Positions 35,136-55,990 of a stretch of 64,000 bases of DNA are shown piece by piece. The translations under genes were made by a program, and so were the position numbers. Below the pieces are notes generated by a model. The model was given only the letters and a program-made list of their open reading frames with translations. It was not told the DNA's origin and did not search any database. Origin of the DNA: Candidatus Binatia bacterium (GTDB taxonomy: Bacteria; Desulfobacterota; Binatia; DP-6); the NCBI GenBank assembly GCA_046327955.1, contig JAXLXP010000006.1, forward strand, positions 82,977 to 146,976. The letters are read 5' to 3'. Position 1 is the stretch's first letter. Each line of letters starts with the position of its first letter.

Positions 35136-36239
35136 TCAGCCCGGCCGGCGCACGCGCCGCAGGTACGCCTCGCGGACGATGCGCACGTCGTCGACGAATG
35201 CGGGCAGCTCCTCGAGCGTGAGCGCCTGCTTGCCGTCGCAGAGTGCCTGCTCGGGGCGGGGGTGGAAGTCCACCAGGATCATGTTGGCGCCGGCGATCAC
35301 GCCCTGCGCGGTGGCGTGATGGATCTCGGTCAGGCCGTCGGGTGTCGTTGTCCGCCGGCCGGCAGAGTGCGAAGGGTCGATGCAGACCGGCAGTCGCGTC
35401 AGCAGCTTCACGACCGGCACGTGCGCGAAGTCGATCAGGTTGCGGTGCGGGTCGCCGAGCAGCGACTTCACCCCGCGCAAGCAGAAGACGATGTTCCGGT
35501 TGCCTTCGCTCGCGATGTACTCGCAGGCGTTGAGCGCCTCTTCGAGCGTGATCCCCATGCCGCGCTTGAAGAGGACGGGGAACTCGTGCTGTTGGCCGAC
35601 GGCCTTGAGCAGCTCGAAGTTCTGCGCGTTGCGCGTACCGATCTGCACCATCACGCCGGTCGGGCTCCCGGTCGCGGCGAGTGCCGCATGGATCTCGTCG
35701 AGCTGGCCCTCGTGCGTCACCTCCATCGCGACCACGGCGATGCCGTGCTTGCCGGCGAGGTCGAACACGTACGGCAGGCAGGTCTTGCCGTGTCCCTGGA
35801 AGTCGTACGGGCTGGTGCGCGGCTTGTAGGCGCCCATACGCGCGGTGCGCAGCCCTTGGGCGGCGAGCGCGGCGAAGGTGCGGTCGACGTTCTCTGGCGT
35901 ATCGACGGCGCAGAGGCCGGCGAAGACGTGCAAGGAGTCCTGATCGAAACGGATGCCGCGGTACTCGAAGCCGATCGCCTCGACCTGACCCTGGTGGCGC
36001 CCGATCGCGCGATACCTGTCCGACACGCGCACGACCCGCACCACCGCCGGGTGCTCGGCGAAGGGTTCGGTCGCGACGGCCTGCGTCTCCCCGACCAGGT
36101 GGACCTCGGTAACGACGTGTGTCTCACCGCGGTAGACGTGCACCTGGGCCGAGATGTTCGGATGCCGTGCCGCTGCAGCCAGGATCTCCTCCACCTCGGC
36201 GGCGTCGGGCTCGAGGTCGGGTCGCAGGATGATGATCAT
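35136..36239 (-). CDS. aroF: 3-deoxy-7-phosphoheptulonate (DAHP) synthase, type I-beta with N-terminal ferredoxin-like regulatory domain
   Basis: 367 aa; KPRTSPYDFQG, CIDPSHSAGRR, LILVDFHP motifs as in Thermotoga/Bacillus-type DAHPS. Confidence 0.85.
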   Translation of the reverse strand: MIIILRPDLEPDAAEVEEILAAAARHPNISAQVHVYRGETHVVTEVHLVGETQAVATEPFAEHPAVVRVVRVSDRYRAIGRHQGQVEAIGFEYRGIRFDQDSLHVFAGLCAVDTPENVDRTFAALAAQGLRTARMGAYKPRTSPYDFQGHGKTCLPYVFDLAGKHGIAVVAMEVTHEGQLDEIHAALAATGSPTGVMVQIGTRNAQNFELLKAVGQQHEFPVLFKRGMGITLEEALNACEYIASEGNRNIVFCLRGVKSLLGDPHRNLIDFAHVPVVKLLTRLPVCIDPSHSAGRRTTTPDGLTEIHHATAQGVIAGANMILVDFHPRPEQALCDGKQALTLEELPAFVDDVRIVREAYLRRVRRPG

Positions 36240-36338: not shown

Positions 36339-37211
36339 CTACGAGCCGACGAGGCGGTCGAGGTGGCGGCGGGTGTCGTCGGAGCCCCGCGTGGGCATCG
36401 ATACGACGAGCCGGTCGGCACCGGCGTCGCGGTAGGCGGCCTGCGTGGCCCGGTCGGGCATCATGTCGAGCGCCGCGTCTTCCATCCCCGGCGGTGCGCC
36501 GATCATGACCGTGATCGAGATGTGCCGCGGGTCGCGCCCGGCCTCGCGTGCGAGGCGGTCGAGGTTGGCGCGTGCCTCGCGCAGGCCATCGGGGGAGAGG
36601 GCGATCGGCATCCACCCGTCGCCCCAGGCGGCGACGCGGCCGAGCGCGTTGGGGCCCATGCCGCCGATGATGACCGGCGGGTGGGGTTTCTGCACCGGCC
36701 GCGGCCGGCAGACCGCGGCCGGGAACCGGATCCATTTTCCCGTGAAGGCCGGGGCGTCCTCGGTCCAGAGCGTGCGCATGGCGGCGACGGCCTCGCGCAT
36801 GAAGCCGAAGCGGTAGGGGAAGTGCGGCGTGAACAGGTCCATCTCCTCCCTGAGCCAGCCGGCGCCGATGCCGAACAGCAGCCGGCCCCCCGAGAGCCAG
36901 TCGAGGCTCGCGACCTGGTGGGCGAGCATGATCGGGTCGCGCTCGGGTACGAGGCAGATGCCGGTGCCGACCTTGAGGCGCGTCGTCACCGCCGCGGCCG
37001 CGGCGAGCACGGCGAACTGGTCGGGTAGCTCCGTGTAGGGCCGCGGGAGCTTGCCGTCGGAAGAGAGCGGGTAGCGTGTCTCGTAGTCGCGCGGGACGAC
37101 CGGGTGCTCGGGGACCCAGAGCGACTCGAGTCCGCGCTCCTCGCAGGCACGAGCGAGCTCCGTGACGGGGAGCGCGCGCTCCGTGACGAACATGAGCACG
37201 CCGACGTCCAT
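36339..37211 (-). CDS. Luciferase-like monooxygenase family (LLM class, possibly F420-dependent) oxidoreductase
   Basis: 290 aa; TIM-barrel LLM motifs LESLWVPEH, LFGIGAGW. Confidence 0.75.
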   Translation of the reverse strand: MDVGVLMFVTERALPVTELARACEERGLESLWVPEHPVVPRDYETRYPLSSDGKLPRPYTELPDQFAVLAAAAAVTTRLKVGTGICLVPERDPIMLAHQVASLDWLSGGRLLFGIGAGWLREEMDLFTPHFPYRFGFMREAVAAMRTLWTEDAPAFTGKWIRFPAAVCRPRPVQKPHPPVIIGGMGPNALGRVAAWGDGWMPIALSPDGLREARANLDRLAREAGRDPRHISITVMIGAPPGMEDAALDMMPDRATQAAYRDAGADRLVVSMPTRGSDDTRRHLDRLVGS

Positions 37212-37289
37212 CGAATCCTACTAGCCGCGGCCGCCGACCCGACGCAAGCCCGGCTCGCGCGGCTGCGTCGCGTCGGCTATCAGGGATGG

Positions 37290-38585
37290 ATGCGGATTGT
37301 GCTGCTCGCGATGCTGCTGCTCGTGCCCGCCCGTGCCCCCGCCGAAGACGGTCTCGCTCCCGGGACCGTGCTCGATGCGGAGCACGCCCCGGCCGCGCAG
37401 AACCTGCTCCCGCCCGAGACGCTCGCGCACTATCAGGCGGGTGAGTACCGTAACGCGATCGCGGCGTGGCCCGCGACACCACCGTGGGAGCCCGCGTTCG
37501 GCGAGGCGAGCGCCAAGAACGCGGGACGGCTGTCGCTCGACGAGAAGGGGACGATCGTCGAGGGCGGCAAGCCGGCGCGCGGTCTCTACGGACTGCCCTT
37601 CAAGGTCGATCCCACCGATGCGCAGGCCGGGCTCGCGGTGATCTGGAACGCGTACTATGCCATCTGGCGCAACGTGAGCACCCACGACGTCGTCGAGCTC
37701 GACTGGATCGGGCGCAAGGGGATCGAGCGGCAGGCGGTGCTCGAGAGCCGCACCCTCTACTACGAGGGGGTGCCACCCGCGCGTGCGCCGAAGAAGAACG
37801 ACCTCGACCTCGCGGCGCAGCAGTTCGCGCTCGTGACGTCGCCGGCGGACCTCAACGGGACGGCCACGCTGCAATGGCGCTTCCGCGATCCGCGACGGCA
37901 GGACCAGTCGTGGACCTACATCCCCGCGCTCAAGCGGGTGCGGCAGGTCTCGCCCGTCAACCGCTCCGACGGGTTCCTCGGCTCCGACCTCTCGCAGGAC
38001 GACGGTTCGTTCTTCGACGGCAAGCCGGAGGACTTCGTCTGGAAGCTCGTGGGCGAGCGCGAGCAGCTCGTGCTCGCCGACCCCGTGAGTCTCGCCAGCA
38101 AGGTCGTCCGGCAGGGCAAGCCCGACGGGGCGATCGAGGAGAGCTGGCCCGTGGGGCAGAAGGTCGTGGGCTACCAGGACCCGGCCTGGCGCGGCCTCGC
38201 ATGGGCGCCGGTGGCGCCGGTGCTGGTCCAGCGCAAGCTCTGGGTGGTCGAGGCACAGCCGCGCGACCCCAACTATCTCTTCCACAAGATCGAGATCGGC
38301 ATCGACCAGGAGACCTTCCAGGGCGCCACGAGCCGCAAGTTCGACGCCCAGGGGGCGCAGCTGCGCAGCCTCACCTTCCTCCTCTACGCGAGCCAGCCGA
38401 TCGAGGCTGGGGGCGAGAAGCTGATCTTCTCGGCGTCGTCGATGGGGTACATCGGTGCGGAGAACCTGAAGGCGAACCGGGCCACGGTGGTGGGGACCGT
38501 TCCGCCCGGCGCACCGATCCACGTGCGGCGCGGGTCCACGGATCCCGACGTCTTCGCGCTCGAACGGCTCGGCGCGGGGAAGTGA
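37290..38585 (+). CDS. DUF1329-family secreted protein (LolA-like fold)
   Basis: 431 aa from ATG 37290; signal peptide MRIVLLAMLLLVPARAPA; WTYIPALKRVRQVSP resembles the family's conserved LRRVRR segment. Confidence 0.55.
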   Translation: MRIVLLAMLLLVPARAPAEDGLAPGTVLDAEHAPAAQNLLPPETLAHYQAGEYRNAIAAWPATPPWEPAFGEASAKNAGRLSLDEKGTIVEGGKPARGLYGLPFKVDPTDAQAGLAVIWNAYYAIWRNVSTHDVVELDWIGRKGIERQAVLESRTLYYEGVPPARAPKKNDLDLAAQQFALVTSPADLNGTATLQWRFRDPRRQDQSWTYIPALKRVRQVSPVNRSDGFLGSDLSQDDGSFFDGKPEDFVWKLVGEREQLVLADPVSLASKVVRQGKPDGAIEESWPVGQKVVGYQDPAWRGLAWAPVAPVLVQRKLWVVEAQPRDPNYLFHKIEIGIDQETFQGATSRKFDAQGAQLRSLTFLLYASQPIEAGGEKLIFSASSMGYIGAENLKANRATVVGTVPPGAPIHVRRGSTDPDVFALERLGAGK

Positions 38586-39161: not shown

Positions 39162-41636
39162 TCACGGGAGCAGTGACATGTCGGTCACGAGCGAGAGCCC
39201 GCCGGGTCCGGGCAGGCCTGCCACCGGGTCGATGGTGAGGCTCACACTGCCGATGCAGAACGTCGAGGCGACCGTGACCTCGCTGGCCGCACTGCCGAGC
39301 CCACTGGCCGACGGGGTGCCGCCCTGCTTGATCGTGCGCGCGAGCTTGTGCCCGAACGCTCCGACCTTCTGGCTCGTCTGACCCGAACAGAAGAGGCCGG
39401 TCGTCGACGTCTTCGACGTCGTCCCGGTGGTGAGCGGGTTGAGGGCGATCGGCAAGGGTGCCTGGAAGGCACCGTCGGACGGACAGTCGACGCTCGGCTT
39501 GTTGGCCGTGACGCCGTCGTTGAAGACGCATGACAGCCCCGACCGTGGGCCGCGGCTGCACTGGTTGGCCGCGGTGCAGACTGGGCAGGGAACCGCCACG
39601 TTGCCGGTCAGGTAGACGCGCGACTGGAGGGTGACGTTGAGGGTCACCGTCCCGCTCGCCGTCGTGTCGGCGGTGCCCGAGCTGTCGGTCTCGATGCCGT
39701 TCACGACACAGGTGGAGAGGGCCGGGTTGCCGGGGTTCGGAATCGGGAGCGGGGGCCCGAAGTAGCAGTTGATGTCCGGCTGGCACCCCTTGCCGAAGTT
39801 GCCGCAGTCCGCGTCGGTGGTGCAGACGGCGCCCGCGTTCGCTTGATTGAGGCAGTGCCTGGCAGGGCCCGTCCCGAGCGTGCAGTTCTTGTTGGCTCCG
39901 CCGACCGGGTAGACGTTGAACCCGGTCGTCGTGCCGACACCGGCGTTCGGCCCGAGTGTGAGGGTCGTGCCGTTCTGCTGGGTGATCGTGAAATACTGGC
40001 TCGATCCCGTCGGAATCGGCCCACCCGGGACGGCCGTATTGCTGCCGCCGCCGAGGTACAGACAGCCCCTTCCGAGGTCGCTCAGCTTGCCGTTGGTCGC
40101 GTTGTCGATCTCGCCGGAGAACGGCGGCGCCGGCGGCGGGCCGAGCGTGGTTCCGCACACTCCGCTCGTTCCGCAGTCCGCTCCCGTGGTGCAGGCGCCG
40201 AGCCCGTTGGTGCCGCCCAGATTGCTACCGCCCGTGCAGTGGACGTTCAGGGCCGGGCCGCCGCAGCTCGACGTTCCTGGTTTGAGCGTCATCTTGAGCT
40301 TGCTGAACCCGATCGTGGTGGTCGTCGTCGGGGTCGTGGTGGTGGTCGTGGTCGGAAGCGTCGTGGTGGTCGTCACGATCGTCGTGGACGTCGTCGTCGG
40401 AACCGTGGTGGTCGTCGTGGCGATCGTGGTGGAGGTGGTCGTCGGGATCGTGGTGGTCGTCGTGGCGAGGGTGGTCGTGGTGGTCGTCGGCAGCGTGGTC
40501 GTGGTGGTGACGACGGTGGTGGAGGTGGTCGTCGGAATCGTGGTCGTCGTCGGCGCCACGCACGTGCAGGCGATGCAGGCATCTCCCTCCGGGCAGTTGC
40601 CGAGGATCGCGCCGCCCGCGGACGTGTCGCACTGCTCGCCCTGGTCGAGCTTGCCGTTGCCGCAGAGGGGAATCGTGGTCGTGGTGGTGGCGATGGTCGT
40701 GCTGGTCGTCGCCAGGGTCGTCGTGGTGGTGGCGATCGTCGTCGACGTCGTGGTCGTGACCGTCGGGAGGCCCCTCACGTAGGCGCGGTCGGCGCTCACG
40801 ATGTCCCCCACGACCCGCCCGCGCACGTGCGACTCTTTGCCGAGGCCGACGAGCGCGTGCGGCGCACAGATGATGCCGTCGAGCTGGGCGCGTTTGGAGA
40901 CGCGGACCCGCTCGCCGCGAACGAGGAACTCGACGTTGCGCGGGTCGGTGCCCGAGGACGGCGACGCGCCGGCGAACGCCTCGTTGAACACCTCGAGGTC
41001 GCCGGTGATGAACACCTGCGCCGCGCTGTCGACGAGGAGCTGCGCGCCGCGGGCCAGCCGGAGGTTGCAAAAGACATACGTGCCGCCCGAGAGGCGGAGG
41101 GTGCCGGCGTTGGCGTCGCCGCTGCCGAGCACGAGGACGTCGCTACGGAGCGTCGGTGAGGTCGAGGAGCCGCCGCCGATCGTCTGGAACCCATTGTGCC
41201 CGACCGTGACCGGGGCCCCGCCGCAGTTGGGGAACTGCCGCGGAAAGCCGCAGGCGTCGCCGAGATCGGCGACGAGCGGATCGATCAGGCCGCCGGGCAT
41301 GGCGGGGCAGGCCGCCTGCGTCTCGATCACCTGGCCCGCAAAGAGCCCGCCGCACCGTGACCCGCGGCCGAGCCGCGCGATCTTGGCGACGACGTCCTGC
41401 GCGTGGGCGTCGAGCTTGCCGTGCGTGAGCGCCGAGCCGCTGTTCACCCGAAGCCCGCCCTCGTCGACGTCGAAGAAGCCCTTCGTCCGCACGAGCTGGC
41501 CGGCGAGAACCGCGTAGTCGGCCGGAGCCCGGCTCGGCCGCGGGGCCGCCGTGCGAGCCGGTGGCGCGAACGCGAGCGCTCCTGCCATGATGGCTAGCAA
41601 GCTGCCGACGATCGCGTAGCGCGTGCCTGATCTCAT
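39162..41636 (-). CDS. Large secreted protein (824 aa): N-terminal domain, myxobacterial Cys-rich repeat flanked by Thr-rich tandem linkers, C-terminal Gly/Cys-rich domain
   Basis: ATG 41636 with GGAGGG RBS; signal peptide MRSGTRYAIVGSLLAIMAGALAFA; LCGNGKLDQGEQCDTSAGG matches TIGR02232-type repeat; about five imperfect 17-aa TTTTT(L/I/V)PTTTSTT(I/V)(A/V) units. Confidence 0.7.
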   Translation of the reverse strand: MRSGTRYAIVGSLLAIMAGALAFAPPARTAAPRPSRAPADYAVLAGQLVRTKGFFDVDEGGLRVNSGSALTHGKLDAHAQDVVAKIARLGRGSRCGGLFAGQVIETQAACPAMPGGLIDPLVADLGDACGFPRQFPNCGGAPVTVGHNGFQTIGGGSSTSPTLRSDVLVLGSGDANAGTLRLSGGTYVFCNLRLARGAQLLVDSAAQVFITGDLEVFNEAFAGASPSSGTDPRNVEFLVRGERVRVSKRAQLDGIICAPHALVGLGKESHVRGRVVGDIVSADRAYVRGLPTVTTTTSTTIATTTTTLATTSTTIATTTTTIPLCGNGKLDQGEQCDTSAGGAILGNCPEGDACIACTCVAPTTTTIPTTTSTTVVTTTTTLPTTTTTTLATTTTTIPTTTSTTIATTTTTVPTTTSTTIVTTTTTLPTTTTTTTPTTTTTIGFSKLKMTLKPGTSSCGGPALNVHCTGGSNLGGTNGLGACTTGADCGTSGVCGTTLGPPPAPPFSGEIDNATNGKLSDLGRGCLYLGGGSNTAVPGGPIPTGSSQYFTITQQNGTTLTLGPNAGVGTTTGFNVYPVGGANKNCTLGTGPARHCLNQANAGAVCTTDADCGNFGKGCQPDINCYFGPPLPIPNPGNPALSTCVVNGIETDSSGTADTTASGTVTLNVTLQSRVYLTGNVAVPCPVCTAANQCSRGPRSGLSCVFNDGVTANKPSVDCPSDGAFQAPLPIALNPLTTGTTSKTSTTGLFCSGQTSQKVGAFGHKLARTIKQGGTPSASGLGSAASEVTVASTFCIGSVSLTIDPVAGLPGPGGLSLVTDMSLLP
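40311..40556 (-). repeat. Imperfect tandem ~51-nt repeats encoding a Thr-rich linker
   Basis: Repeated gtcgtggtggtcgtc...ggaaccgtggtg units read directly. Confidence 0.65.
40666..40775 (-). repeat. Second Thr-rich linker-coding low-complexity repeat
   Basis: Encodes TVTTTTSTTIATTTTTLATTSTTIATTTTTIP. Confidence 0.6.
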
Positions 41637-41843
41637 CCTGCCCTCCACGAGACGGGTCGGTGCCCTCCGACCCCGCCCATTGCTGAGCAAAATCCGTAAC
41701 ACGCTGGCCAAGCGAAGGGAAGCCAAAAGCCGCGGCCCGGCGCGGGTTTCGTCGTGCGCCTGGGCAAGAACTGCCGCGCGGGGTGGCGATTCTGCAAGGG
41801 CCTGCCCGAGTGGCCGCGATGTTGCGCGGATGCGGCACCTGCC

Positions 41844-44636
41844 ATGTATACTCCGCCGGCGATGAATGGGTTCGCCCGCCGGCTCGTCCGGCATCCGGCG
41901 ACCGTCCTCGTGGCGGCCGGTCTCGTGACGGCCCTCCTCGGGGTTGCGGCCTCCCGCATCCGCGTCGAGAGCTCGCTCGAGAGCGTGCTCGCCGCGGGGG
42001 ACCCCGAAGCGGACTACTACGCGCGGGTCCGCAGCCTCTTCGGCGGCGACGACGTGGCGGTGGTCGGCGTGCTCGCCGACGACGTGCTCGCGCCAGCGAC
42101 CCTCGAGAAGATGGCGCGGGTCACCGACGCGCTGGCGAAGATTCCGGGCGTCGAGCGCGTGATGAGCCTGACCAATGCCGTCGATCCGGCTGCCGACGTG
42201 GTGGCGCCGCCACGGTTGCTGCCGCGCATCCCGCCGACGCCGGACGACACCGCCGCGGTGCGGCAAAAACTCGCGGCCACTCCCCTCTACCGCAAGAACC
42301 TCGTGGCCGACGACCTCCGTGGCGCGGCGATCAACGTCGTCTTCCGTCCGCTGACCGACGCCGAGTACCACGATCGCGGCATCGACGCGGCGATCATGCG
42401 CGTGCTGGCCGCGGAGCCGGGGCCCGAGCGGTTCCTCTACACCGGGGCGGCGCACGTGAAGCAGGCGGCGGTGACCCTCATGCAGGAGGACCTGCTGCGG
42501 TTCACGCCGTGGGCGCTCGGCCTGGTCGCCGCCGTGCTCGGGCTCGCCTTCCGGACCCGCCGCGGCGTCGTCCTCCCGCTCCTGACCGTGCTGCTCGCCG
42601 TCCTGTGGACGCTCGGCCTCATGGAGGCCACGGGCCATGCGATCACGCTCGGCACGTTCATCCTCCCGCCCCTGCTGCTCGTCGTCGGCAGCTCGTACGC
42701 GATCCACGTCATGGCGCGCTACTACGAGCAGGTGGAACGCGAGGCGCCAGCCGACGAGCTCGTGATCCGGGCCATCGAGCGCGTCTGGCCGCCGCTGGTC
42801 ATCTCGGCCTTCGCGACGGCGGTCGGATTCGGCTCGCTGATGGTGAGCCGCATTCCCGCCATCTGGGAGCTCGGCTGCTTCGCGGTGGTCGGCGTGGCGT
42901 GCCTCACGGTGAGCTGCCTGACGTTTCTGCCGGCGGCGCTGGCGGCGCTCCCGGCGGAACGAACGCGGGCGCGTCGGGGAAAGGTGGGGCCCGGCCTCGC
43001 CCCGTTGCTCGCCCGACTCTCCCGGCTCGCGCACGACCGGCGTACGGCGATCTTCACGGTGGCGGTGATGCTGGCGGTGGCGGCGCTGGTCGGTATCCGG
43101 CGGATCACCGTCGACTCCGATTTCGTCGCGTACTTCACCCCGCGCTCCGAGGTGCGGCTCGCCAACGAGGCCGTCAACCAGCACATCGTGGGCAGCAATC
43201 CCTTCTACGTCGTGATCGAAGGCACCCCGGGCACGCTCAAGCGGTGGGAGGTGCTCAAGCTCGTCGAGGACCTGCAGCGGTTCCTCGACACCGTGCCGGG
43301 GATCACTTCGTCGATCTCGCTGGTCGACTACCTCGAGCTCCTCGAGGCGGGTCTCAACCGCGCCGGCGGGGAGGACCTCGTCGTCGACGAGCAGGGAAAC
43401 ATCCGCCCGGCGGAGAAGCCGAAGACGTTCTGGGAGGATCCGAAGAGCCTCGATCCCGTGCTCAAGATGGTCGCCACCAGCCCGGCCACGTTCAAGAGCG
43501 TGGTCACGGCCGATTTCTCCAAGGCATCGGTCCTGGTGCGGACGCGGCTCTCGGCCTCGCGCGCGGTCGAGGAGACGCTCGCCCGCGTGCGCGAATACGT
43601 GGCCGCGCACTTCCCGGCCGACGTCGGTGTGCGGCTCACGGGCAACCTCGTGCTGCTCACGGGGACGACCTCCGACATCGTGCGCGATCAGGTCGAGAGC
43701 CTCGGGCTCGCGCTGGGCGTCATCTTCGTCGTCCTGTCGACGATGTTCCTGTCCGGGAAGATCGGCCTGCTCGCGATCCTGCCGAACGTCCTGCCCGTGG
43801 TGCTCTTCTACGGCGTGATGGGCTGGCTCGGGATCCAGCTCAACTTCGGGACGAGCCTCATTGCCGCGATCTCGCTCGGCATCGCGGTGGACGCCACGAT
43901 CCACTACATGGCCCGGCTCAACCGCGAGCTCGCCGGGGAGATCGACCAGCGGGCCGCGATCGGCCGAGCGCTCGAGACCGTGGGCGTACCGATCATCTTC
44001 ACGACGGTGGCGCTCTTCCTGGGGTTCCTCACCTTCGCGTGCTCGAGCTTCGTGCCGATCCAGAGCTTCGGGATCCTCTCCGGCGTCACCATGGCCGCGT
44101 CGCTCGGGACGAACCTCGTCCTCCTGCCCGCGCTACTCGCCACCACGAAGATCATCACGCTCTGGGACCTCGTGGCCGTGAAGCTCGGCCGCGACCCGAC
44201 CCGCACGATCCCGCTCTTCGCCGGCCTGCGGCCGACGCAGGCGCGGGTGGTCGTGCTCATGGGCGAGATCAAGCGCTTCCGGCCCGGCGAGACCATCGTG
44301 CGCCAGGGCGATCCGGGGGACGAGATGTACGTCATTCTCGACGGGCGGACGGAAGTCTGGGTGTCGCAGGCCGACCACCGCCAGCGCATCTTCGAGCTGC
44401 GACGGGGCGACGTGTTCGGCGAGATGAGCCTGGTGCGCCGCGCCGAGCGGTCGGCCGACGTGGTGGCCGCCGACGCGGTCGAGGTGCTCGCGGTGAGTGA
44501 GCGGTTCCTCGAGCGCCTGCGCCGCCGCTACCCGCGCATCGCCTCGCGGCTCTTCCTGAACCTGACGAGTGTCCTGAGCGATCGCCTCCAGTCGATGAAT
44601 GCGCGCTTCGTCGGCCGCACCGGGACCGCCTCCTGA
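41844..44636 (+). CDS. MMPL/RND-superfamily exporter (HpnN-like, two 6-TM bundles with sterol-sensing-domain-like regions) fused to a C-terminal cyclic-nucleotide-binding (CAP_ED) domain
   Basis: 930 aa from ATG 41844 (ATG 41862 alternative); 12 predicted TMs and two large periplasmic loops; C-terminal FRPGETIVRQGDPGDEMYVILDG...GDVFGEMSLV...RSADVVA cNMP-binding signature. Confidence 0.8.
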   Translation: MYTPPAMNGFARRLVRHPATVLVAAGLVTALLGVAASRIRVESSLESVLAAGDPEADYYARVRSLFGGDDVAVVGVLADDVLAPATLEKMARVTDALAKIPGVERVMSLTNAVDPAADVVAPPRLLPRIPPTPDDTAAVRQKLAATPLYRKNLVADDLRGAAINVVFRPLTDAEYHDRGIDAAIMRVLAAEPGPERFLYTGAAHVKQAAVTLMQEDLLRFTPWALGLVAAVLGLAFRTRRGVVLPLLTVLLAVLWTLGLMEATGHAITLGTFILPPLLLVVGSSYAIHVMARYYEQVEREAPADELVIRAIERVWPPLVISAFATAVGFGSLMVSRIPAIWELGCFAVVGVACLTVSCLTFLPAALAALPAERTRARRGKVGPGLAPLLARLSRLAHDRRTAIFTVAVMLAVAALVGIRRITVDSDFVAYFTPRSEVRLANEAVNQHIVGSNPFYVVIEGTPGTLKRWEVLKLVEDLQRFLDTVPGITSSISLVDYLELLEAGLNRAGGEDLVVDEQGNIRPAEKPKTFWEDPKSLDPVLKMVATSPATFKSVVTADFSKASVLVRTRLSASRAVEETLARVREYVAAHFPADVGVRLTGNLVLLTGTTSDIVRDQVESLGLALGVIFVVLSTMFLSGKIGLLAILPNVLPVVLFYGVMGWLGIQLNFGTSLIAAISLGIAVDATIHYMARLNRELAGEIDQRAAIGRALETVGVPIIFTTVALFLGFLTFACSSFVPIQSFGILSGVTMAASLGTNLVLLPALLATTKIITLWDLVAVKLGRDPTRTIPLFAGLRPTQARVVVLMGEIKRFRPGETIVRQGDPGDEMYVILDGRTEVWVSQADHRQRIFELRRGDVFGEMSLVRRAERSADVVAADAVEVLAVSERFLERLRRRYPRIASRLFLNLTSVLSDRLQSMNARFVGRTGTAS

Positions 44637-44661
44637 GAGCCGCGGCCGGCATTGCCGCGTC

Positions 44662-45228
44662 ATGGCCGTTCGCGTAGGGTCCGGCGCCGTGGCCGGAGGG
44701 GCCGATTTCTCCGCCGTCTCGCGGCGGTGGCTGCTCAAGTACTCGCTCGGCGCGGCGGGCTTCGCGCTGATGGGTGGAGCCGGCGGACTGCTCGCGATCC
44801 GGGGCGGTGCGCCGGCGGTCGCGGGCCTGCGCTGGCTCACCGCGCAGGAGCACCGCACGCTCGCCGCGCTGGCGGGGGCGTTGTATCCGCCGAGTCCCGC
44901 GTTCCCGGTCGGCGCGAACGACGTCCACCTGGTGTCGCGGATCGACGCCTTCGTCGCGGATCTGGCGCCCTGGGATCAGCGCGATCTACGCCGGGCGATC
45001 GTCCTGCTCGAGTACGGGCCGGTGCTGTTCGAGCGGCGCGCCACGACGTTCCGGCACCTCGCGGAGGAAGAGCGGGCGGCGCACTTCGCGCGCTGGTCGG
45101 TGAGCGACAGCCAGCTCCGCCGCGAGGTCGCGGTGGCGTTTCGCCGGCTCCTCGCGCTCATGTTCTTCGATCGACCGGAGGTGTGGCCGCACGTCGGCTA
45201 CGACGGTCCATACCTCACGCGGGAGTAG
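44662..45228 (+). CDS. Gluconate 2-dehydrogenase subunit 3-family small subunit with Tat signal
   Basis: 188 aa; twin-arginine motif SRRWLLKYSLGAAGFAL; immediately precedes GMC oxidoreductase. Confidence 0.65.
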   Translation: MAVRVGSGAVAGGADFSAVSRRWLLKYSLGAAGFALMGGAGGLLAIRGGAPAVAGLRWLTAQEHRTLAALAGALYPPSPAFPVGANDVHLVSRIDAFVADLAPWDQRDLRRAIVLLEYGPVLFERRATTFRHLAEEERAAHFARWSVSDSQLRREVAVAFRRLLALMFFDRPEVWPHVGYDGPYLTRE

Positions 45229-45235: not shown

Positions 45236-46765
45236 GTGGCCGGAACCGTCGTCGACTGCTCGCGTGAGCGCGTGCCCGAGCGGCTCTCGGTCGAGGTGTG
45301 CGTGATCGGCTCGGGCTCGGGCGGGGCGACCGTGGCGTGGGAGCTCGCCGCCGCTGGGCGCGAGGTCCTCGTCCTCGAGGAGGGGGGCGACTACACGGGC
45401 CCGGCGCTCACCGAGCGCGAGACCGCCATGTACGACCAGCTCTACATGGATCGCGGCGGGCGGACGACGAGCGATCTCTCGGTGAGCGTCATGCAGGGGC
45501 GCGTCCTCGGCGGCGGCGGAGTGGTCAATGCCTGCGACGTCGTGCCCATTCCCGACGGCGTGCTGCGGCACTGGCAGCGACGGTACGGGCTCACCGACTT
45601 CGCCCCCGCGGCGTTGGCACCGTATCGCGACCGTGCGCTCGCGGATCTCTCCGCGAACCGCCCGGACGAGGCGCAGCTCAACCGCAACAACCGGCTCCTC
45701 CGCGCCGGGGCGCAGGGCCTCGGGTGGCGCGGCGAGGTCATGCTGCACAACCGCGTGGGGTGCGCGGGCATCGGCGCGTGCCTGATCGGCTGTCCGCTCG
45801 ACGCCAAGCGGAACCCGCGCTTCGTCGCGATCCCGCGCGCGCTCGAGGCTGGCGCGCGCTTCCTCACCCGGGCGCGCGCGGTGCGGCTCGAGGACGCCTC
45901 GTCGGACATCAAGACGATCCACGTCCGCCGGCTCGACCCGAAGGGCTATCACGAGCAGGGTGAGCTCACCGTCCGCGCGCAGATCGTGATCCTGGCCGCG
46001 AACGCGATCGCGTCGGCGCAGCTCCTCCTGCGCTCGGGGCTGGGGAACGCGCACGTCGGTCGCCATCTCACGCTGCAGCCCCAGCTGCCGATCCTCGCGC
46101 TCTTCGACGACGAGGTGCGCTGCTTTCGCGGAATTCCGCAGGCCTACGCGATCACCGAATTCGAGAATCTCGACGACGCGCAGCACGGGTGGTGGGGTTT
46201 CCGGATCGAGGCGATCGGCGGGACGCCCGGCGTCGTGGCGACGAGCATGCCGGTGTACGGGCCGCGCGCCAAGGAGATCATGACGCGCTTTCCGAACGCC
46301 GCGATGGCGCTCCTGCTCACTCCCGACGACGGGGTGGGGCGCGTCACGGTCGAGGCCTCGGGGCGGTTGCGCATCGGGCACGAGCTGACCGACGAGCATC
46401 GTGGCCGCCTGCGGCAGGCGGCGCGGGCGGCGGCGCGGCTCTACCTCGCGGCCGGCGCGCGCGAGGTGCTGCTGCCCGTCGCGCCGCCGGTCTTCGTGCG
46501 CTCCGAGGCCGACCTCGCCGCGCTCGACGGCGTGGACCTCCGGCCGGCCACCGCCCCGCTGATCAGTGCGCACCAGCAGGGTACCGTGCGCATGGCGCCA
46601 TCCGAGCGCGACGGCGGCGCCGACCCGGATGGGCGGGTCTACGGGACGCGGGACGTCTACGTGTTCGACACGTCCGGGTTCCCGTCGAGCGCCTCCAGCC
46701 ATACGATGGCGCCGGTCATCACGGTTGCCCGGTTCCTGTCGGCGCGCCTGCTCGCGCGGGCGTGA
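45236..46765 (+). CDS. GMC-family FAD-dependent oxidoreductase (dehydrogenase large subunit)
   Basis: 509 aa, GTG start; FAD motif VCVIGSGSGGATVAWELAAAG; C-terminal catalytic GTVRMAP...FPSSASSHTMAP. Confidence 0.85.
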   Translation: MAGTVVDCSRERVPERLSVEVCVIGSGSGGATVAWELAAAGREVLVLEEGGDYTGPALTERETAMYDQLYMDRGGRTTSDLSVSVMQGRVLGGGGVVNACDVVPIPDGVLRHWQRRYGLTDFAPAALAPYRDRALADLSANRPDEAQLNRNNRLLRAGAQGLGWRGEVMLHNRVGCAGIGACLIGCPLDAKRNPRFVAIPRALEAGARFLTRARAVRLEDASSDIKTIHVRRLDPKGYHEQGELTVRAQIVILAANAIASAQLLLRSGLGNAHVGRHLTLQPQLPILALFDDEVRCFRGIPQAYAITEFENLDDAQHGWWGFRIEAIGGTPGVVATSMPVYGPRAKEIMTRFPNAAMALLLTPDDGVGRVTVEASGRLRIGHELTDEHRGRLRQAARAAARLYLAAGAREVLLPVAPPVFVRSEADLAALDGVDLRPATAPLISAHQQGTVRMAPSERDGGADPDGRVYGTRDVYVFDTSGFPSSASSHTMAPVITVARFLSARLLARA

Positions 46766-46845: not shown

Positions 46846-48153
46846 GTGGCGATGAGCCAGCGCAAGAAACTCGCGATCCTCGTGGGGGGCGGCCCGGCGC
46901 CGGGGATCAACAGCGTCATCAATGCCGCCATGATCCGGAGCGCGCTCGAGGGCGTCGACGTGCTCGGCATTCGCGACGGGTTCGAGTGGATCATGCACGG
47001 CAACATCGAGCACGTGCGCCCGCTCACGATCGAAGAGGTCAGCCGCATCCACTTCCGCGGCGGGTCGTACATCGGCATCTCGCGCGCCAACCCCACCTCC
47101 GACCCGCAGCACCTCGAGAACACGGTGATCTCGCTGCTGCGGCTCAACGTGTCGCAGCTGATCACGATCGGCGGCGACGACACCGCGTTCTCGGCGATGA
47201 AGCTCGAGGAGAAGTCGGCCGGGCGCATCCGCGTCGTGCACGTGCCGAAGACGATCGACAACGACCTCGACCTCCCGCCGCACATCGACACCTTCGGCTT
47301 CCAGACGGCGCGGCACGTCGGCGTCGAGATCGTGAAGAACCTGATGGTCGACGCCGAGACGACGTCGCGGTGGTACTTCGTCATCGCGATGGGCCGCAAG
47401 GCGGGCCACCTCGCCCTCGGCCTCGGCAAGGCGGCGGGGGCGACGCTCACGCTGATCCCCGAAGAGTTCGGCACCGAGAAGATCGGCTTCAAGGCGATCG
47501 TCGACACCCTGGTCGGCGCGGTCATCAAGCGGCTCGCCTCGGGCCGGCGCGACGGGGTGGCGGTCGTGGCCGAGGGCGTCGTGCTCGGGCTCGACCCCTC
47601 GGAGCTCGCGCACCTCGAGGACGTCGAGCGGGACGCGCACGGGAACCTGCGCATCGCGGAGGTCGACATCGGGGAGATCCTCAAGCGCGCGGTGCAGAAG
47701 CGCCTGAAGGAGTTCGGCATCAAGACGACGATCGTGGCCAAGAACATCGGCTACGAGCTGCGCTGTGCCGACCCGATCCCCTACGACATGGAGTACACGC
47801 GCGACCTCGGCTACTGCGCGGCCAAGTACCTCCTCCAGGGTGGTGACGCGGCGATGATCTCGATGCAGGGGGGGCACTTCGTGCCGATCCCGTTCGCGCA
47901 GCTCCTCGACGTCAAGACCGGCCGCGCGCGCATTCGCCTCGTCGACGTCCACTCGACGCGCTACGCGATCGCGCGCCGCTACATGATCCGGCTGCGGCGC
48001 GACGACTTCGACGACCCGCACGAGCTCGCCAAGTTCGCGGCGACCGCCGGCGTGTCCCTGGCGGAGTTCCGGGACCAGTTCGCCTACCTGATCCAGCTGG
48101 AGCCGCCGCCGCTCGACCTCGCGCCGCACCCCGCCGCCCCGTCGCCGAGCTGA
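46846..48153 (+). CDS. pfk: 6-phosphofructokinase (PFK-A family; ATP- or PPi-dependent)
   Basis: 435 aa; GGPAPGINS, IGGDDT, PKTIDNDL, MGRKAGHLAL motifs. Confidence 0.85.
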   Translation: MAMSQRKKLAILVGGGPAPGINSVINAAMIRSALEGVDVLGIRDGFEWIMHGNIEHVRPLTIEEVSRIHFRGGSYIGISRANPTSDPQHLENTVISLLRLNVSQLITIGGDDTAFSAMKLEEKSAGRIRVVHVPKTIDNDLDLPPHIDTFGFQTARHVGVEIVKNLMVDAETTSRWYFVIAMGRKAGHLALGLGKAAGATLTLIPEEFGTEKIGFKAIVDTLVGAVIKRLASGRRDGVAVVAEGVVLGLDPSELAHLEDVERDAHGNLRIAEVDIGEILKRAVQKRLKEFGIKTTIVAKNIGYELRCADPIPYDMEYTRDLGYCAAKYLLQGGDAAMISMQGGHFVPIPFAQLLDVKTGRARIRLVDVHSTRYAIARRYMIRLRRDDFDDPHELAKFAATAGVSLAEFRDQFAYLIQLEPPPLDLAPHPAAPSPS

Positions 48154-48164: not shown

Positions 48165-48752
48165 TCAGTGCACGATCAGCACCGGCGTGCGCGTGCCCGT
48201 GATCACGCGTTGCGCGAGGCTGCCGAGGCTCCCGACGGCGAGCGCGCCGCGCCCACGGCTGCCCATGACGAGCAGGTCGACGCCCTCGGCGGCGGCCAGG
48301 ATCGCTTCGAGCGGGGGGCGGGTCTCCACGCGCACCGTACACGAGACCTGCGCGCTCTCGCACAGGCGGCGGCAGCGGTCGAGCTGCGCGCGCGCGTCGT
48401 CCGCGAGGGCGTGCTCCGCTTCCTCGGCGACCGCGTCGATGCGGCTGCCGACGCTGGGCCGCAGCCGCAGGGCGCGCAAGGTGCTGGTATCCACGGCGGC
48501 GAGGAGCGTGATCTCGCCGTGCGTCGTGGCCGCGAGCGTCGCGGCCAGCTCTGCGGCCCGCAGCGACGGCCCGGAGCCGTCGACCGCGACGAGGAGCCGC
48601 CGCGGGAGCTGCGGGAGCTGCGGCAGCGGCTCGCGGGCGACCGTGTCGGCGCAGCGTGTCGAGCAAAACCGCCGCGGGCTTCCACCCACCGTCAGCTCGA
48701 TCGCGACGCGCTCCGGCACCGGATCACTGCACGCACTGCACTTGACGATCAT
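48165..48752 (-). CDS. TRASH/YHS-like zinc-ribbon domain fused to a universal stress protein (UspA) domain
   Basis: 195 aa from ATG 48752, which overlaps ppsA stop (ATGA); CSAC-x20-CSTRC fits the TRASH pattern; Usp motifs LVAVDGS, LVMGSRGRG. Confidence 0.7.
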   Translation of the reverse strand: MIVKCSACSDPVPERVAIELTVGGSPRRFCSTRCADTVAREPLPQLPQLPRRLLVAVDGSGPSLRAAELAATLAATTHGEITLLAAVDTSTLRALRLRPSVGSRIDAVAEEAEHALADDARAQLDRCRRLCESAQVSCTVRVETRPPLEAILAAAEGVDLLVMGSRGRGALAVGSLGSLAQRVITGTRTPVLIVH

Positions 48753-51978: not shown

Positions 51979-54900
51979 TCAGGCGGCGGGTGGCGAAGTC
52001 TCGGCCATGGGGGCGGCACCGGCCTCCAGCGCCGCGCGCAGGCGGTCCGCGCGCCGGCTGTAGTAGGCGAGGCCGAGCTCGGCGGCGACGAGGGAGCCGT
52101 GTGCGAGCTGGGCGCGGCTCCGGGCCAGGTCGCCGCGGGCCGCGGCGAGCTCCGCGTCGCCGATGAGCGCCGCCGCGAGCACGGAGTTGGCGCCGATCGC
52201 CTCGGCGAGGCTGATCGCCCGTGTGAAGGTCCGCGCCGCCTCGCTCCAGCGGTCGGGTCCGAGGCGGGTGAGCACCTGCCCGGCGGCCTCCGCGGTCTGC
52301 GCGGCGATTGCCCGGCCGCCGGTCCGACCGTGGGTCCGCTCGAGGAACCGCTCGGCGCGTCCGAGGTCGCCGACCGCGAGGAATGCCTCACACACGAAGC
52401 GGTAATTGTAGAGCGTGCTGCCGAGCGCTGCCGAGAGTCCCTCGTCGATGAGATCGAGGTAGCGCTGCGGCGACACCGGCTCGCCCCGCTCGAAACGCGA
52501 GAGCAGGGCCACGCCGGCGATCGAGGCGAGCGAGTTGCGGGTGCTGATCGCGCTCGCGATCGCCAGGCTCAGGTCCGCCCAGCGCTGGGCCTCCACGTAC
52601 TCCCCGCGCATGAAATATACGCCGGCGAGCATGCCGGAGGAGCCGCTCTGGACGGTGCGGTTGCCCGCTCGCACCGCGGCCTCGTAGGTGTCCCGGACGG
52701 CGGCGAGCGACGCGTTCGGGTCCTCGCTCAGGTAGTGGATCGCGTCGCTGACCACGCGCGCGCCGAGGTAGAGGTCGGTGAGCTTCTCGGCGTGGCCCAG
52801 CCGCGCCAGCTCGGCCACCACCCAGCCGATCGTCTGCCGCGCGAGCTCGAAGCGGCCGTCCATGAGGTAGGCCGACGCGAGGCCGCGGGCGATGCGGATC
52901 TGCGCCACCTCCCGCCCGGCCCGTTGCGCCACGGCGAGGGCCTCCTCGATCAACGCGAGGCCGCGGGCGAAGCGATCCTCGTCGCCGCCCATCGTGGCCA
53001 TGCCGAGGTAGAGCGTCAGGTAGGCGACCGCTTCGGGGTCGGCGAGCTCGCGTGCGAGCTCGCGCCCGCGTGCCGCGGCACGCTCGACCTGGTCGACCTC
53101 GGTCGAGCCGTAGATGACGCTCACACGGCAGAACTCGAGGCTCGCGTTCACCGCCGCGCGCGTCAGCTCGGGGTGGGCGCCGAGGGCGGCGTCGGCGATC
53201 TCCCAGGCCTGGCGGTAGAGCAGCGCCGCCGTCCCGTACGACGGGACCTTCTCGGTCTCGCGTCCGGCGCGGAGCAGCGCCGCGGTGGCGCTGGCGGCGT
53301 CGTCGCCGCGGGCACGATGATGGGCGAGGAGCACGAGCCGCGCGGCGTCGCCGTCGACGATGCCCTCCTCGAGCTGCGCGGCGACGCGGTCGTGGAGCTG
53401 CCGGCGGTGCTTGAGGAGGAGGCTCTCGTAGGCCACCTCCTGGGTGAGGCTCTCGCCGAATCGGTACTCGTCGAGCGAGAGGAAGTTCTGGCGATGGAGG
53501 ATGCCGCGGCGCAGGAGCTCGTCGAGCTCCTGCCCGACGTCGATCGGCTCCCCCGTGAGCACATGCTCGAGCTCGGGGCGGCGAAACTGCCGGCCGAACA
53601 CGGCCGCCACCTGCACGACGCGCTTGGCCGCCGGGCTCAGCCGGTCGAGACGGGCCGCCAGCACTTCCTGCACGGTGCCCGGGATGGGGATCTCGTGGCC
53701 CTCCTCGACGAGCGCGCGCGTGATCTCCTCGGTGAAGAACGGACTGCCCTCGGCGCGAGCGAGGATGCGCTCCTCGACGTCGTCGGGCAGCGGCCCGCCG
53801 GCGACGGCGCGGACGATCGCGCGCGTGTGCGCTTCCGCCAGCGGCCGCAGGCGGAGCTGCGTGAAGGCGCTCGCGGGCCGCCAGGTCGCCTCGTAGTCGC
53901 GGCGGTGGGTCACCAGCAGCATCACGGACTCGTTGCCGAGCCGCGCGACCGCGTCCTCGAGCATGCGACGCGACTGCGGGTCGATCCAATGGAGGTCCTC
54001 GACGACCATCACGATCGGCGCCTGCCGCGCCAGGCCGACCACCAGATGGGCCACGGCGGCGAAGGTCTGTTCCTCCAGGCCCTCGAGCGCGAGTTCCTCG
54101 CTGCCGGGTGCGCCGGGCGACAGCAGGCGGCAGAGGAACGGGTAGCCGGCGTCGAGGGCGGGCTCGACCGACCGCAACCCGGCTGCGACCTTGCTGCAGA
54201 CGGTCTCGCCCGTCTCGCCCGACTCGAGCGCGAAGTGTCGCCGCAGCATGCCGACGAACGGCGCGTAGGGGACGCTCTGGCTGAGCGCGGCGCAGCGGCC
54301 CTCGAGGACCTGCGTCGGCGTGCCCGCGAGGCGCTCGCGGAACTCGTGCACGAGCCGCGACTTGCCACTGCCGGCGTCGCCCACCACCGCGACCACCTGC
54401 GCCAGCCCCCCGGCGAGGCGCTCGTGACAGGCGAGCAGCTGCGCCAGCTCTTCGGTGCGGCCGACGAACGGCGTCAACCCGCGCTCGACCGCGAGCGCCA
54501 TCGGCGTGCGCGCGTCGGTGCGGCCGGTGACCTCGTGCGCGGTCACGGGCTCGGTGATGCCCTTGAGCGCGAAGGGGCCGCGGGGCTGCAGGTGGAAGGC
54601 GCCGCGGACGAGCCGGGCCGTCGTGTCGCTCACGAGCGTCGTACCGGGCTCGGCGACCGTCTGCAGGCGCTGCGCCAGGTTGGTCGTGTCCCCGATCGCC
54701 GTGTACTCCATCCGCAGGTCGCTGCCGACGGTGCCGACGACGACCGGGCCCGTGTTGACGCCGATGCGCACGCGCAGCGGCTCCTGTCCGAGGCCTTCGA
54801 GCGCGGCGTGGATCGCGAGCGCCGCACGCACGGCCCGCTGCGGCGCGTCCTCGTGCGCGATCGGCGCGCCGAAGAGCGCCATGAAGCCGTCGCCGGCCAG

Positions 54901-55287
54901 GTGCGGCACGATGCCCTCGAGGCGGTAGATCTCCGCGACCGCGCGCTCGAGGTAGGCCTCGAGCCGGTCGTGGTACTCCTCGGGGTCGAGCCGCGCGGCG
55001 AGCGCGGTGGAGCCGACCAGGTCGCAGAAGAGCACGGTGACCTGCTTGCGCTCGCCGGCGGGCAGGTCCCGGGTGGCGCGCAGCTTGTCGGCGAGCCCGG
55101 CGGGGATGTGCTGGGCGAGGCGCGCCAGCCGTGCGTCGGCGAGCGGGGCGCCGCAGCCGGGACAGAACCGGAACCCGGCCTCGACCACGGTGCCGCACTG
55201 TGCGCAGGTCTGCGGCACCGGCGCGCCGCAGTTGTGGCAGAAGGGTTTGCCCGGGAGGAGCTCCGTGCCGCAGCTCGCGCAGTGCAT
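51979..55287 (-). CDS. Multidomain adenylate/guanylate cyclase: N-terminal double zinc ribbon, class III cyclase domain, STAND/AAA NTPase, C-terminal TPR-like array
   Basis: 1102 aa; CASCG...CHNCG...CAQCG...CPGCG; cyclase VTVLFCDLVGSTAL, GDGFMALFGAP, RIGVNTGPVVVG; P-loop VVGDAGSGKSRLV. Confidence 0.85.
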   Translation of the reverse strand: MHCASCGTELLPGKPFCHNCGAPVPQTCAQCGTVVEAGFRFCPGCGAPLADARLARLAQHIPAGLADKLRATRDLPAGERKQVTVLFCDLVGSTALAARLDPEEYHDRLEAYLERAVAEIYRLEGIVPHLAGDGFMALFGAPIAHEDAPQRAVRAALAIHAALEGLGQEPLRVRIGVNTGPVVVGTVGSDLRMEYTAIGDTTNLAQRLQTVAEPGTTLVSDTTARLVRGAFHLQPRGPFALKGITEPVTAHEVTGRTDARTPMALAVERGLTPFVGRTEELAQLLACHERLAGGLAQVVAVVGDAGSGKSRLVHEFRERLAGTPTQVLEGRCAALSQSVPYAPFVGMLRRHFALESGETGETVCSKVAAGLRSVEPALDAGYPFLCRLLSPGAPGSEELALEGLEEQTFAAVAHLVVGLARQAPIVMVVEDLHWIDPQSRRMLEDAVARLGNESVMLLVTHRRDYEATWRPASAFTQLRLRPLAEAHTRAIVRAVAGGPLPDDVEERILARAEGSPFFTEEITRALVEEGHEIPIPGTVQEVLAARLDRLSPAAKRVVQVAAVFGRQFRRPELEHVLTGEPIDVGQELDELLRRGILHRQNFLSLDEYRFGESLTQEVAYESLLLKHRRQLHDRVAAQLEEGIVDGDAARLVLLAHHRARGDDAASATAALLRAGRETEKVPSYGTAALLYRQAWEIADAALGAHPELTRAAVNASLEFCRVSVIYGSTEVDQVERAAARGRELARELADPEAVAYLTLYLGMATMGGDEDRFARGLALIEEALAVAQRAGREVAQIRIARGLASAYLMDGRFELARQTIGWVVAELARLGHAEKLTDLYLGARVVSDAIHYLSEDPNASLAAVRDTYEAAVRAGNRTVQSGSSGMLAGVYFMRGEYVEAQRWADLSLAIASAISTRNSLASIAGVALLSRFERGEPVSPQRYLDLIDEGLSAALGSTLYNYRFVCEAFLAVGDLGRAERFLERTHGRTGGRAIAAQTAEAAGQVLTRLGPDRWSEAARTFTRAISLAEAIGANSVLAAALIGDAELAAARGDLARSRAQLAHGSLVAAELGLAYYSRRADRLRAALEAGAAPMAETSPPAA

Positions 55288-55948: not shown

Positions 55949-55990
55949 GCGGCGACGATACACCCGCGCCCGAGCCGACGGAAACCGCGT

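Follow-up and report, generated by a model that had tools for sequence, protein, structure and literature searches.

Can the activity of an RND lipid transporter be set directly by a nucleotide second messenger? Post-translational control of such transporters (MmpL3, HpnN, NPC1, Patched), which are of medical as well as basic relevance, is little understood, and the known bacterial examples of RND regulation are small proteins such as AcrZ (PMC10710835). The question was raised by a 64,000-nucleotide stretch of DNA from Candidatus Binatia bacterium (contig JAXLXP010000006.1, positions 82,977 to 146,976; hereafter the window), in which one gene, starting at 41844, joins an RND transporter of the MMPL type to a C-terminal cyclic nucleotide-binding (CNB) domain. 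Our analysis demonstrated the architecture, fold, residue conservation and gene linkage of this protein. On balance, it is probable, by a modest measure, that the protein is a proton-driven exporter of envelope lipids, that cAMP or cGMP directly controls its activity, and that a dedicated cyclase supplies this nucleotide.

One uninterrupted gene encodes both domains

The transporter gene lay in an uninterrupted frame (41754..44636, +) with zero in-frame stops, in which the ATG at 41844 gives a product of 930 amino acids (aa). This product was 100% identical to the NCBI entry P0001, which lies on a contig of 327 kb and is named 'MAG: MMPL family transporter [Candidatus Binatia bacterium]' (MAG, metagenome-assembled genome). 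Met7 (41862) appears equally plausible as the start, because the alignments of most homologues begin at residue 7, and no clear ribosome-binding site was found before either ATG. A scan for promoters and terminators turned up nothing useful. The GC content by codon position was 0.70/0.47/0.93 in a genome of 70% GC, and this pattern indicated a real gene.

Both parts were detected above threshold in the same open reading frame (ORF) by Pfam. MMPL (PF03176) scored 111.8 bits against a gathering cutoff of 20.5, in two stretches, and cNMP_binding (PF00027) scored 75.2 bits against 27.5 (E=4e-21) over residues 810-895. A first-pass annotation, made from the letters alone, had read the locus as one gene without a stop between the domains; this was confirmed by a single frame here, in the 73 ORFs among the fetched loci that were full-length with both parts, and in about 120 divergent cluster representatives. 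That the fusion is an assembly or frameshift artefact of two genes has practically no chance of being true and was excluded, as the same 900-935 aa ORF occurred in hundreds of independent assemblies, including the complete chromosomes OZ246887.1, OZ243961.1 and OZ224218.1.

The fusion is widespread among relatives

An exhaustive search of 1.84 billion cluster representatives (50%-identity clusters) yielded 6191 matches at E<=1e-30. About 120 of the best 150 representatives carried a C-terminal CNB domain at the same position, down to 27% identity to the window protein as measured in that search (25% in alignment A3, see below). About 12 had two tandem CNB domains (1130-1290 aa), and about 12 were full-length yet unfused (750-800 aa). 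The tandem-CNB sub-group also has an N-terminal extension (P0148, P0176, P0192, P0204, P0205, P0208, P0225, P0231, P0235, P0238, P0241, P0252 and P0262). Fusion carriers came from at least five phyla. Among them were Myxococcota, Methylomagnum sp., Nitrospirota (one of these being Nitrospira sp. Kam-Ns4a, whose genome is complete), MAGs assigned to Binatia and 'Deltaproteobacteria', and one Campylobacterota MAG. Two paralogues were present in several genomes; those of L034 (778-8608) stood in tandem, one from each of the second and third subfamilies described below, with a cyclase gene beside the pair.

The fusion is thus real, old and widespread. The genome scan with alignment A2 used a pattern inside the CNB domain, and the locus set was thereby biased towards Binatia; a profile search based on alignment A1 (41 sequences) recovered the same Binatia clade again and did not widen the range of taxa. 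One member bears the JGI label 'predicted RND superfamily exporter protein/CRP-like cAMP-binding protein', and because this automatic annotation names both parts, the architecture was already visible in databases. The first-pass remark that the architecture is not commonly described therefore holds for the literature, where it is rare, but not for genomes, where it is common.

The transporter module is predicted to fold like RND lipid exporters

Residues 1-765 constituted a 12-helix RND/MMPL transporter. The AlphaFold2 model, built on alignment A3 of 109 diverse family members, had a mean predicted local distance difference test score (pLDDT) of 93 and a predicted template-modelling score (pTM) of 0.87. 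Twelve helices in two bundles had been proposed beforehand and were recovered in the model. The large periplasmic domains, however, did not precede the bundles as had been supposed; they sat between helices 1 and 2 of each, that is, between transmembrane helices (TM) 1 and 2 and between TM7 and TM8, in the 1+5/1+5 layout that the RND superfamily requires. An internal duplication was evident, since the second half of the query aligned to the first half of HpnN and vice versa, and Pfam gave the two MMPL stretches noted above.

When the model was compared with PDB entries by Foldseek, MmpL4/5 and MmpL3 led (target-normalised TM-score 0.74-0.79), followed by HpnN, NPC1, NCR1 and Patched, with MexB also among the whole-chain fold matches. 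As judged from the model, these matches are the lipid-handling branch of the RND superfamily. The best NCBIfam subfamily model was HAE3 (TIGR00921; TC 2.A.6.7), whose 243.2 bits lay below the membership cutoff of 351.9. The protein had initially been labeled HpnN-like; its fold does match HpnN, but HAE3/COG1033 was the best subfamily model, and HpnN orthology was rejected by scores far below cutoff (NF052374, 58.7 versus 1100; TIGR03480, 120.3 versus 751.85). No hopanoid genes occurred among the window neighbours examined. A mycobacterial-type MmpL was also rejected (TIGR00833 (actII), 136.8 versus a cutoff of 874.7). The protein belongs to the RND superfamily, to Pfam MMPL and to the CNB domain family, and stands outside the formal HAE3, HpnN and MmpL subfamily models.

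The TM10 segment LGIAVDATIHY aligned with LGVDFAIQY in TM4 of HpnN, the Asp included. Its putative proton-relay residues were strongly conserved in the 109-sequence alignment, with D683 and T685 each kept in 102 members and H687 in 106. In TM4, H288 was kept in 100 of the 109, and position 285 was Tyr in 69 and Glu in 36. Read together, positions 285-286 were Tyr-Ala in those 69 members, the window protein among them, and Glu-Asp in the 36, and the TM10 pattern Asp-Asp/Ala-Thr-x-His was constant; this suggests that two proton-relay layouts may exist inside one family.

The Sterol-sensing and Patched SSD Pfam matches at residues 243-368, together with the structural likeness to Patched and NPC1, would also suit a different function, in which the RND module would not pump but work as a lipid sensor or receptor, in the way of SCAP or Patched, and the protein would join membrane-lipid and cyclic nucleotide signals. 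We regard this as very improbable. The protein has no output domain, the titratable Asp/Thr/His cluster conserved in TM10 is typical of proton-coupled RND pumps, and the closest structures are the working lipid exporters MmpL3/4/5 and HpnN. Moreover, the operon partners described below are LolA-like periplasmic carriers and secreted proteins, which fit an export route.

The CNB domain retains a conserved phosphate-binding cassette

The C-terminal region, proposed at first as a canonical sensor, passed the cNMP-binding hidden Markov model, and its ligand-contact residues were intact and conserved. In the AlphaFold2 model it comprised a beta roll (808-885), a B helix (886-895) and a C helix (897-929). 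The protein terminates at the C helix (residue 930), with no DNA-binding domain after the CNB domain. Identity as a CRP/FNR transcription factor was rejected, as there was no C-terminal helix-turn-helix and the CRP equivalog model scored 46.1 against 266.

The best PDB sequence matches of the CNB domain were PKG, PKA-R, SthK and MloK1, with E down to 4e-22, and residues 858-875 (FGEMSLVRRAERSADVVA) aligned with the phosphate-binding cassettes of PKG, PKA-R and SthK. These cassette positions hold the ribose and the cyclic phosphate in PKA, PKG, CAP and CNG channels. Among the 109 members, G859 was invariant, and conservation reached 108 for G855, 105 for R869, 103 for A871, 102 for E860 and 93 for Ser or Thr at position 870. 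Such near-invariance speaks for selection to bind a nucleotide. Binders of cAMP and binders of cGMP alike have the Arg-Ser-Ala form of the cassette, which is compatible with either ligand. R914 in the C helix was kept in at least 90% of the members of alignment A3, and we take it to be a possible capping arginine as in MloK1 and HCN2. In the linker between TM12 and the CNB domain, W774 and D775 were each kept in 100 of the 109 members, and this conservation argues for a fixed mechanical coupling.

The CNB fold serves other ligands in the CRP/FNR superfamily, whose members sense haem, 2-oxoglutarate or redox state. The domain might likewise bind something other than a cyclic nucleotide, or nothing, and serve as a scaffold or for dimerisation; the long C helix at the end of the protein (897-929) resembles the dimer-interface helix of CRP, and HpnN crystallises as a dimer. 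We consider such a role improbable, given that the Gly-Glu...Arg-Ser/Thr-Ala cassette is conserved across the family even at its least conserved position, 870, that the best sequence matches are true cyclic nucleotide binders, and that a cyclase gene is repeatedly adjacent, as follows.

A cyclase gene recurs beside the transporter gene

The first-pass annotation had pointed to a multidomain class III nucleotide cyclase some 7 kb away, and Pfam confirmed both the class and the multiple domains of the product. The window contained exactly one cyclase domain, and its sole CNB domain was that of the transporter. In alignments to Cya2 and CyaB, the cyclase domain kept both metal-binding Asp residues and the Asn/Arg pair. 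The specificity pair was His/Thr in the window cyclase and Gln/Thr-Ser in its orthologues, and other cyclases had Arg, Glu, Asp or Lys at the first position.

No cyclase was seen in the first five related loci, but a larger set of 80 species representatives reversed that picture. A gene orthologous to that of the window cyclase, its product having the same order of domains and 50-54% identity across some 1100 aa, was found 49-702 bp from the transporter gene, in convergent orientation, in L008, L009 and L010; in L072 it lay 34 bp away on the same strand, and in L014 about 1.6 kb away. Of all neighbours in the window's orthologue group, the cyclase was conserved most often (6 of 19 non-redundant loci); the other window neighbours varied. 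Since L008 keeps the order transporter-cyclase-GST (glutathione S-transferase), the window arrangement seems to have arisen from this pair by an insertion of 7.3 kb. The intervening block, which consists of the 44599-45228 gene and the GMC oxidoreductase, phosphofructokinase and phosphoenolpyruvate (PEP) synthase genes, was seen in this genome only.

Cyclases of other types adjoined other branches of the family. The members of a second subfamily share 41-47% identity with the window protein, and there a different cyclase-TPR gene of about 620 aa stood 43 bp to 1.9 kb from the transporter gene (L049, L057, L052 and L051); in a third subfamily cyclase genes were directly adjacent in L036 and L045. 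Three tandem zinc-ribbon/cyclase/AAA/TPR genes lie directly upstream of the transporter-CNB gene in L045 (49-9939). Overall, a cyclase occurred within 2 kb in 14 of 88 loci, whereas the cyclase density of the 2-10 kb flanks would predict 3.7 (Poisson P=3e-5), in a test that treats related loci as independent. The expected number fell to 1.2 when the background was taken from loci without a near cyclase.

The CNB domain might instead read the general cAMP/cGMP pool, the cyclase at 51979-55287 being functionally unrelated and near only through leftover synteny or chance. In the window the two genes are 7.3 kb apart on opposite strands with housekeeping genes between them (phosphofructokinase and PEP synthase, besides GMC oxidoreductase), and about 70 of the 88 loci (~80%) have no cyclase within 10 kb. 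Counting conservatively, about five independent arrangements against the same deliberately generous background give P=0.31. Nevertheless, we judge this alternative unlikely, because the same cyclase orthologue directly adjoins the transporter gene of four related loci and is close to that of a fifth, while the other window neighbours vary, because two further subfamilies adjoin different cyclase types in different orientations, and because the gene order of L008 points to an insertion in the window. As read from these gene orders, the link to the cyclase is well supported for the window's orthologue group, more strongly than first proposed, and across the family it appears recurrent but not universal.

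Candidate LolA-like partners and substrate context

On the export side, distant members had a LolA-like gene of about 265 aa (PF17131/DUF1329) directly beside the transporter gene and nearly always on the same strand. Such neighbours were found in Nitrospira sp. Kam-Ns4a, the Campylobacterota MAG and a 10.5 Mb genome, and in the further loci L059, L060, L064, L067, L071, L079 and L080. A long DUF1329 form lay a few kb off in the window, the P0018 locus, L016, L052 and L068, and its placement in the P0018 locus matched that in the window. LolA-like jackhmmer matches in L007 and L009 were discounted, as they ran antisense to a luciferase-like gene and had been drawn in through a stop-to-stop ORF in L016. 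In P0388 the MMPL module was itself fused to a LolA-like domain, and the expression of TOL_3187, a fusion of the same two parts, is induced by long-chain alkane (PMC6304351). In several bacteria, transposon cofitness links a COG1033 RND exporter to DUF1302, to DUF1329 and to a BNR protein, a set for which Price et al. proposed a role in exporting an envelope component (bioRxiv 10.1101/072470). Neither DUF1302 nor BNR was found among the 30 window ORFs scanned, which are a part of those in the window; DUF1329 was present (37104-38585).

A protein of some 470 aa, for which Pfam gave no match, was co-operonic with the LolA-like and transporter-CNB genes in three distant phyla (L087, 5672-7084; L088, 4822-6204; L089, 5570-7081). 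The intact copies of L087 and L088 start like signal peptides, and the Nitrospira copy is split into two ORFs. This protein may be an outer-membrane partner.

Two members lay in suggestive surroundings, that of Methylomagnum sp. (L090) inside a large polyketide synthase cluster and that of the 10.5 Mb genome beside an aryl-polyene-like cluster with acyl carrier protein, ketosynthase and FabA-ApeI-like genes (L087, 10930-18772). An ABC1-family kinase gene is near the transporter gene in both. When the neighbours from 86 loci were clustered, the families met most often were response regulators/kinases, zinc alcohol dehydrogenases, enoyl-CoA hydratases and glycine-cleavage-T-like proteins.

A model of nucleotide-set lipid export

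From these observations we infer ligand binding, the sign of regulation, the substrate, the identity of the nucleotide and the coupling path, as follows. The protein would be an inner-membrane RND transporter of the branch that exports lipids or other hydrophobes (HAE3/COG1033, MmpL, HpnN, NPC1, Patched). The proton gradient would drive transport through the buried Asp/Thr/His cluster of TM10 paired with Tyr/His of TM4, so that a hydrophobic constituent of the envelope, be it a lipid, a pigment or a polyketide-lipid, would be lifted from the inner membrane into the periplasmic domains, and the cargo would probably be passed to a LolA-like/DUF1329 periplasmic carrier and then outward. Binding of cAMP or cGMP in the cassette would move the B and C helices and the linker, and this movement would reach TM12 and, in the TM10-12 bundle, the helices around the proton relay, whereby transport would be switched or tuned post-translationally. 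The nucleotide would probably come from the sensor cyclase (zinc ribbon, cyclase, AAA NTPase, TPR), whose gene was presumably adjacent to the transporter gene ancestrally and is now 7.3 kb off in this genome. In its fullest form, the model is a self-contained circuit running from a STAND-like cyclase to a CNB domain clamped to TM12, from there to switched lipid extraction, and on to a LolA-like carrier bound for the outer membrane; to this complete chain we give tentative credence, somewhat short of an even chance.

Several findings weigh against the model, besides those already set out for a general pool and the treatment of related loci as independent in the enrichment test. Full-length relatives without the fusion are interspersed with fused members, and the basic function therefore does not need the CNB domain. 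TM4 of the window protein lacks the Asp known from MmpL3 and HpnN, and an acidic residue is present in TM10 only. The linker is the part of the structural model with the lowest confidence (pLDDT 59 at residues 771-780). The product of the cyclase is not callable from sequence, because its specificity pair matches neither Lys/Asp-Thr (ATP) nor Glu/Cys-Gly (GTP). Finally, neighbour clustering over the 86 loci gave no shared gene of a substrate pathway.

If the model is true, the family would be a new class of effector for bacterial cAMP/cGMP signalling, which has so far been dominated by transcription factors and channels, and a post-translational control point for outer-membrane lipid delivery in at least five phyla. 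It would tie signalling to the export of envelope lipids in Binatia, which are abundant, uncultured bacteria of soil, as well as in Nitrospira and a methanotroph, and would provide the first directly nucleotide-gated RND transporter in the literature searched. A large natural family with a fused, well-understood sensor would also offer a direct handle on RND regulation: experimenters could supply or omit the ligand, the residues in contact with it are known, and the sensor is joined to the proton-relay bundle.

Other genes of the window

The coordinates of the transporter and cyclase genes and of their neighbours are collected in Table 1. The secreted protein encoded at 39162-41637 (-), divergently from the transporter, is about 825 aa long; it starts with a signal peptide (MRSGTRYAIVGSLLAIMAGALAFA), is rich in Cys, and has long Thr/Pro-rich linkers and only a weak DUF7305 match. 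A counterpart of equal size, with no Pfam match, occupies the same place in the P0018 locus, and weak matches were found in L008 and L014. The stop-to-stop frame of this gene extends to 43904, antisense through the transporter gene, and is a high-GC artefact. Downstream of the transporter, the products of 44599-45228 and 45236-46765 look like a two-subunit, periplasm-facing dehydrogenase. A homologue of LuxE-like acyl-protein synthetases (PF04443, E=2e-13) is encoded at 29217-30299 (-); the lineage is non-luminous and from soil.

Table 1. Features of the transporter gene, the cyclase gene and their neighbourhood (positions in the window; aa, residues of the product; AF2, AlphaFold2 model; DAHP, 3-deoxy-D-arabino-heptulosonate 7-phosphate)
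Feature	Position	Strand	Evidence
DAHP synthase	35136-36239	-	
Luciferase-like monooxygenase	36339-37211	-	
DUF1329/LolA-like protein, 493 aa; candidate periplasmic partner, 3.2 kb upstream of the transporter gene, same strand	37104..38585	+	Pfam PF07044 and PF17131
Secreted Thr/Pro-rich protein, divergent from the transporter	39162-~41637	-	
Whole gene: RND (MMPL/HAE3-like) transporter with C-terminal CNB domain	41844..44636	+	ORF, Pfam, NCBIfam, NCBI identity, AF2
TM1 (aa 5-36)	41856..41951	+	DSSP on AF2
Periplasmic domain 1 (aa 37-201), mixed alpha/beta	41952..42446	+	AF2; fold like MmpL/HpnN porter domains
TM2-TM6 (aa 202-368), sterol-sensing-domain-like bundle; TM4 with GSSYAIH (Y285, H288)	42447..42947	+	AF2, Pfam
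Cytoplasmic loop with amphipathic helix	aa 369-399		AF2
TM7 (aa 400-418)	43041..43097	+	AF2
Periplasmic domain 2 (aa 419-600)	43098..43643	+	AF2, Foldseek
TM8-TM12 (aa 601-765); TM10 with GIAVDATIHY, putative proton-relay D683, T685, H687	43644..44138	+	AF2, conservation, HpnN alignment
D683 codon	43890-43892	+	
Cytoplasmic linker from TM12 to CNB domain (aa 766-796), motif ITLWD...IPLFxGL	44139..44231	+	Conservation, AF2
CNB domain (aa 797-929): N-terminal helix, 8-strand beta roll, B and C helices	44232..44630	+	PF00027, PDB sequence matches, DSSP
Phosphate-binding cassette (aa 855-875): G855, G859, E860, R869, S870, A871	44406..44468	+	Conservation in 109 members
Small protein with twin-arginine-type signal (SRRWLLKYSLGAAGFAL)	44599-45228	+	No Pfam match
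GMC oxidoreductase	45236-46765	+	
Phosphofructokinase	46846-48153	+	
PEP synthase	48749-51154	-	
Class III nucleotide cyclase, 1102 aa: double zinc ribbon, Guanylate_cyc, AAA_16, TPR	51979..55287	-	Pfam
Cyclase domain	~54550-55053	-	PF00211, 81.8 bits vs cutoff 21.9
Glutathione S-transferase (GST)	55301-55963	-	
Cation-efflux protein	55991-57073	-	

Comparison with known systems

Full-text literature searches for MMPL or RND together with cyclic nucleotide binding returned no paper describing the fusion, and the Binatota genome paper leaves the family unmentioned. No RND transporter gated directly by a nucleotide second messenger was found described in the literature searched.

The closest structural relatives of the transporter module, HpnN, MmpL3 and MmpL4/5, share its 12-helix fold with two periplasmic domains (target-normalised TM-scores 0.64-0.79) and a buried Asp-containing motif in a central helix. 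They differ in sequence (14-17% identity), in the position of the key Asp, which is in TM10 and not TM4 of the window protein, and in having no nucleotide-sensing domain in the solved structures. For cytoplasmic-side partners or regulation, the AcpM bound in PDB entries of MmpL4/5 is a precedent. The COG1033/HAE3-DUF1329 systems, including the exporters of this type in a P. putida study (bioRxiv 10.1101/2020.07.04.188060), resemble the present one in three ways: HAE3 is the best model; relatives bear the JGI name 'predicted RND superfamily exporter' or, in the case of some distant fused ones, 'HAE3 family protein'; and a DUF1329/LolA-like gene is nearby here and operonic in distant members. 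The characterised ones, however, have no CNB domain, and the window protein scores below the HAE3 cutoff.

Mycobacterial Rv0386-type cyclases combine a cyclase with AAA/NB-ARC and TPR parts. The window cyclase has a like order (cyclase-AAA_16-TPR) and a non-Lys residue at the first specificity position, but it differs in that no LuxR-type DNA-binding domain was detected by Pfam and in its N-terminal double zinc ribbon. With the K+ channels MloK1 and SthK, the window protein shares a CNB domain carried on the last transmembrane helix through a short linker, and its CNB domain matches that of SthK at E=1e-13 and that of MloK1 at E=2e-7. Those proteins are tetrameric ion channels whose pore opens, whereas the window protein is an RND transporter of a different fold and cycle, presumably proton-coupled.

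Among secondary transporters, MFS proteins fused to CNB domains are on record but uncharacterised, and a 2023 review of transporter regulation names no RND-CNB fusion (PMC10710835). The MFS fusions carry the same kind of cytoplasmic 'plug-in' CNB domain on a different transporter superfamily. The combination of a CNB domain with an RND transporter is new to the literature searched, yet it is a natural extension of such 'plug-in' regulatory domains and is abundant in sequence databases.

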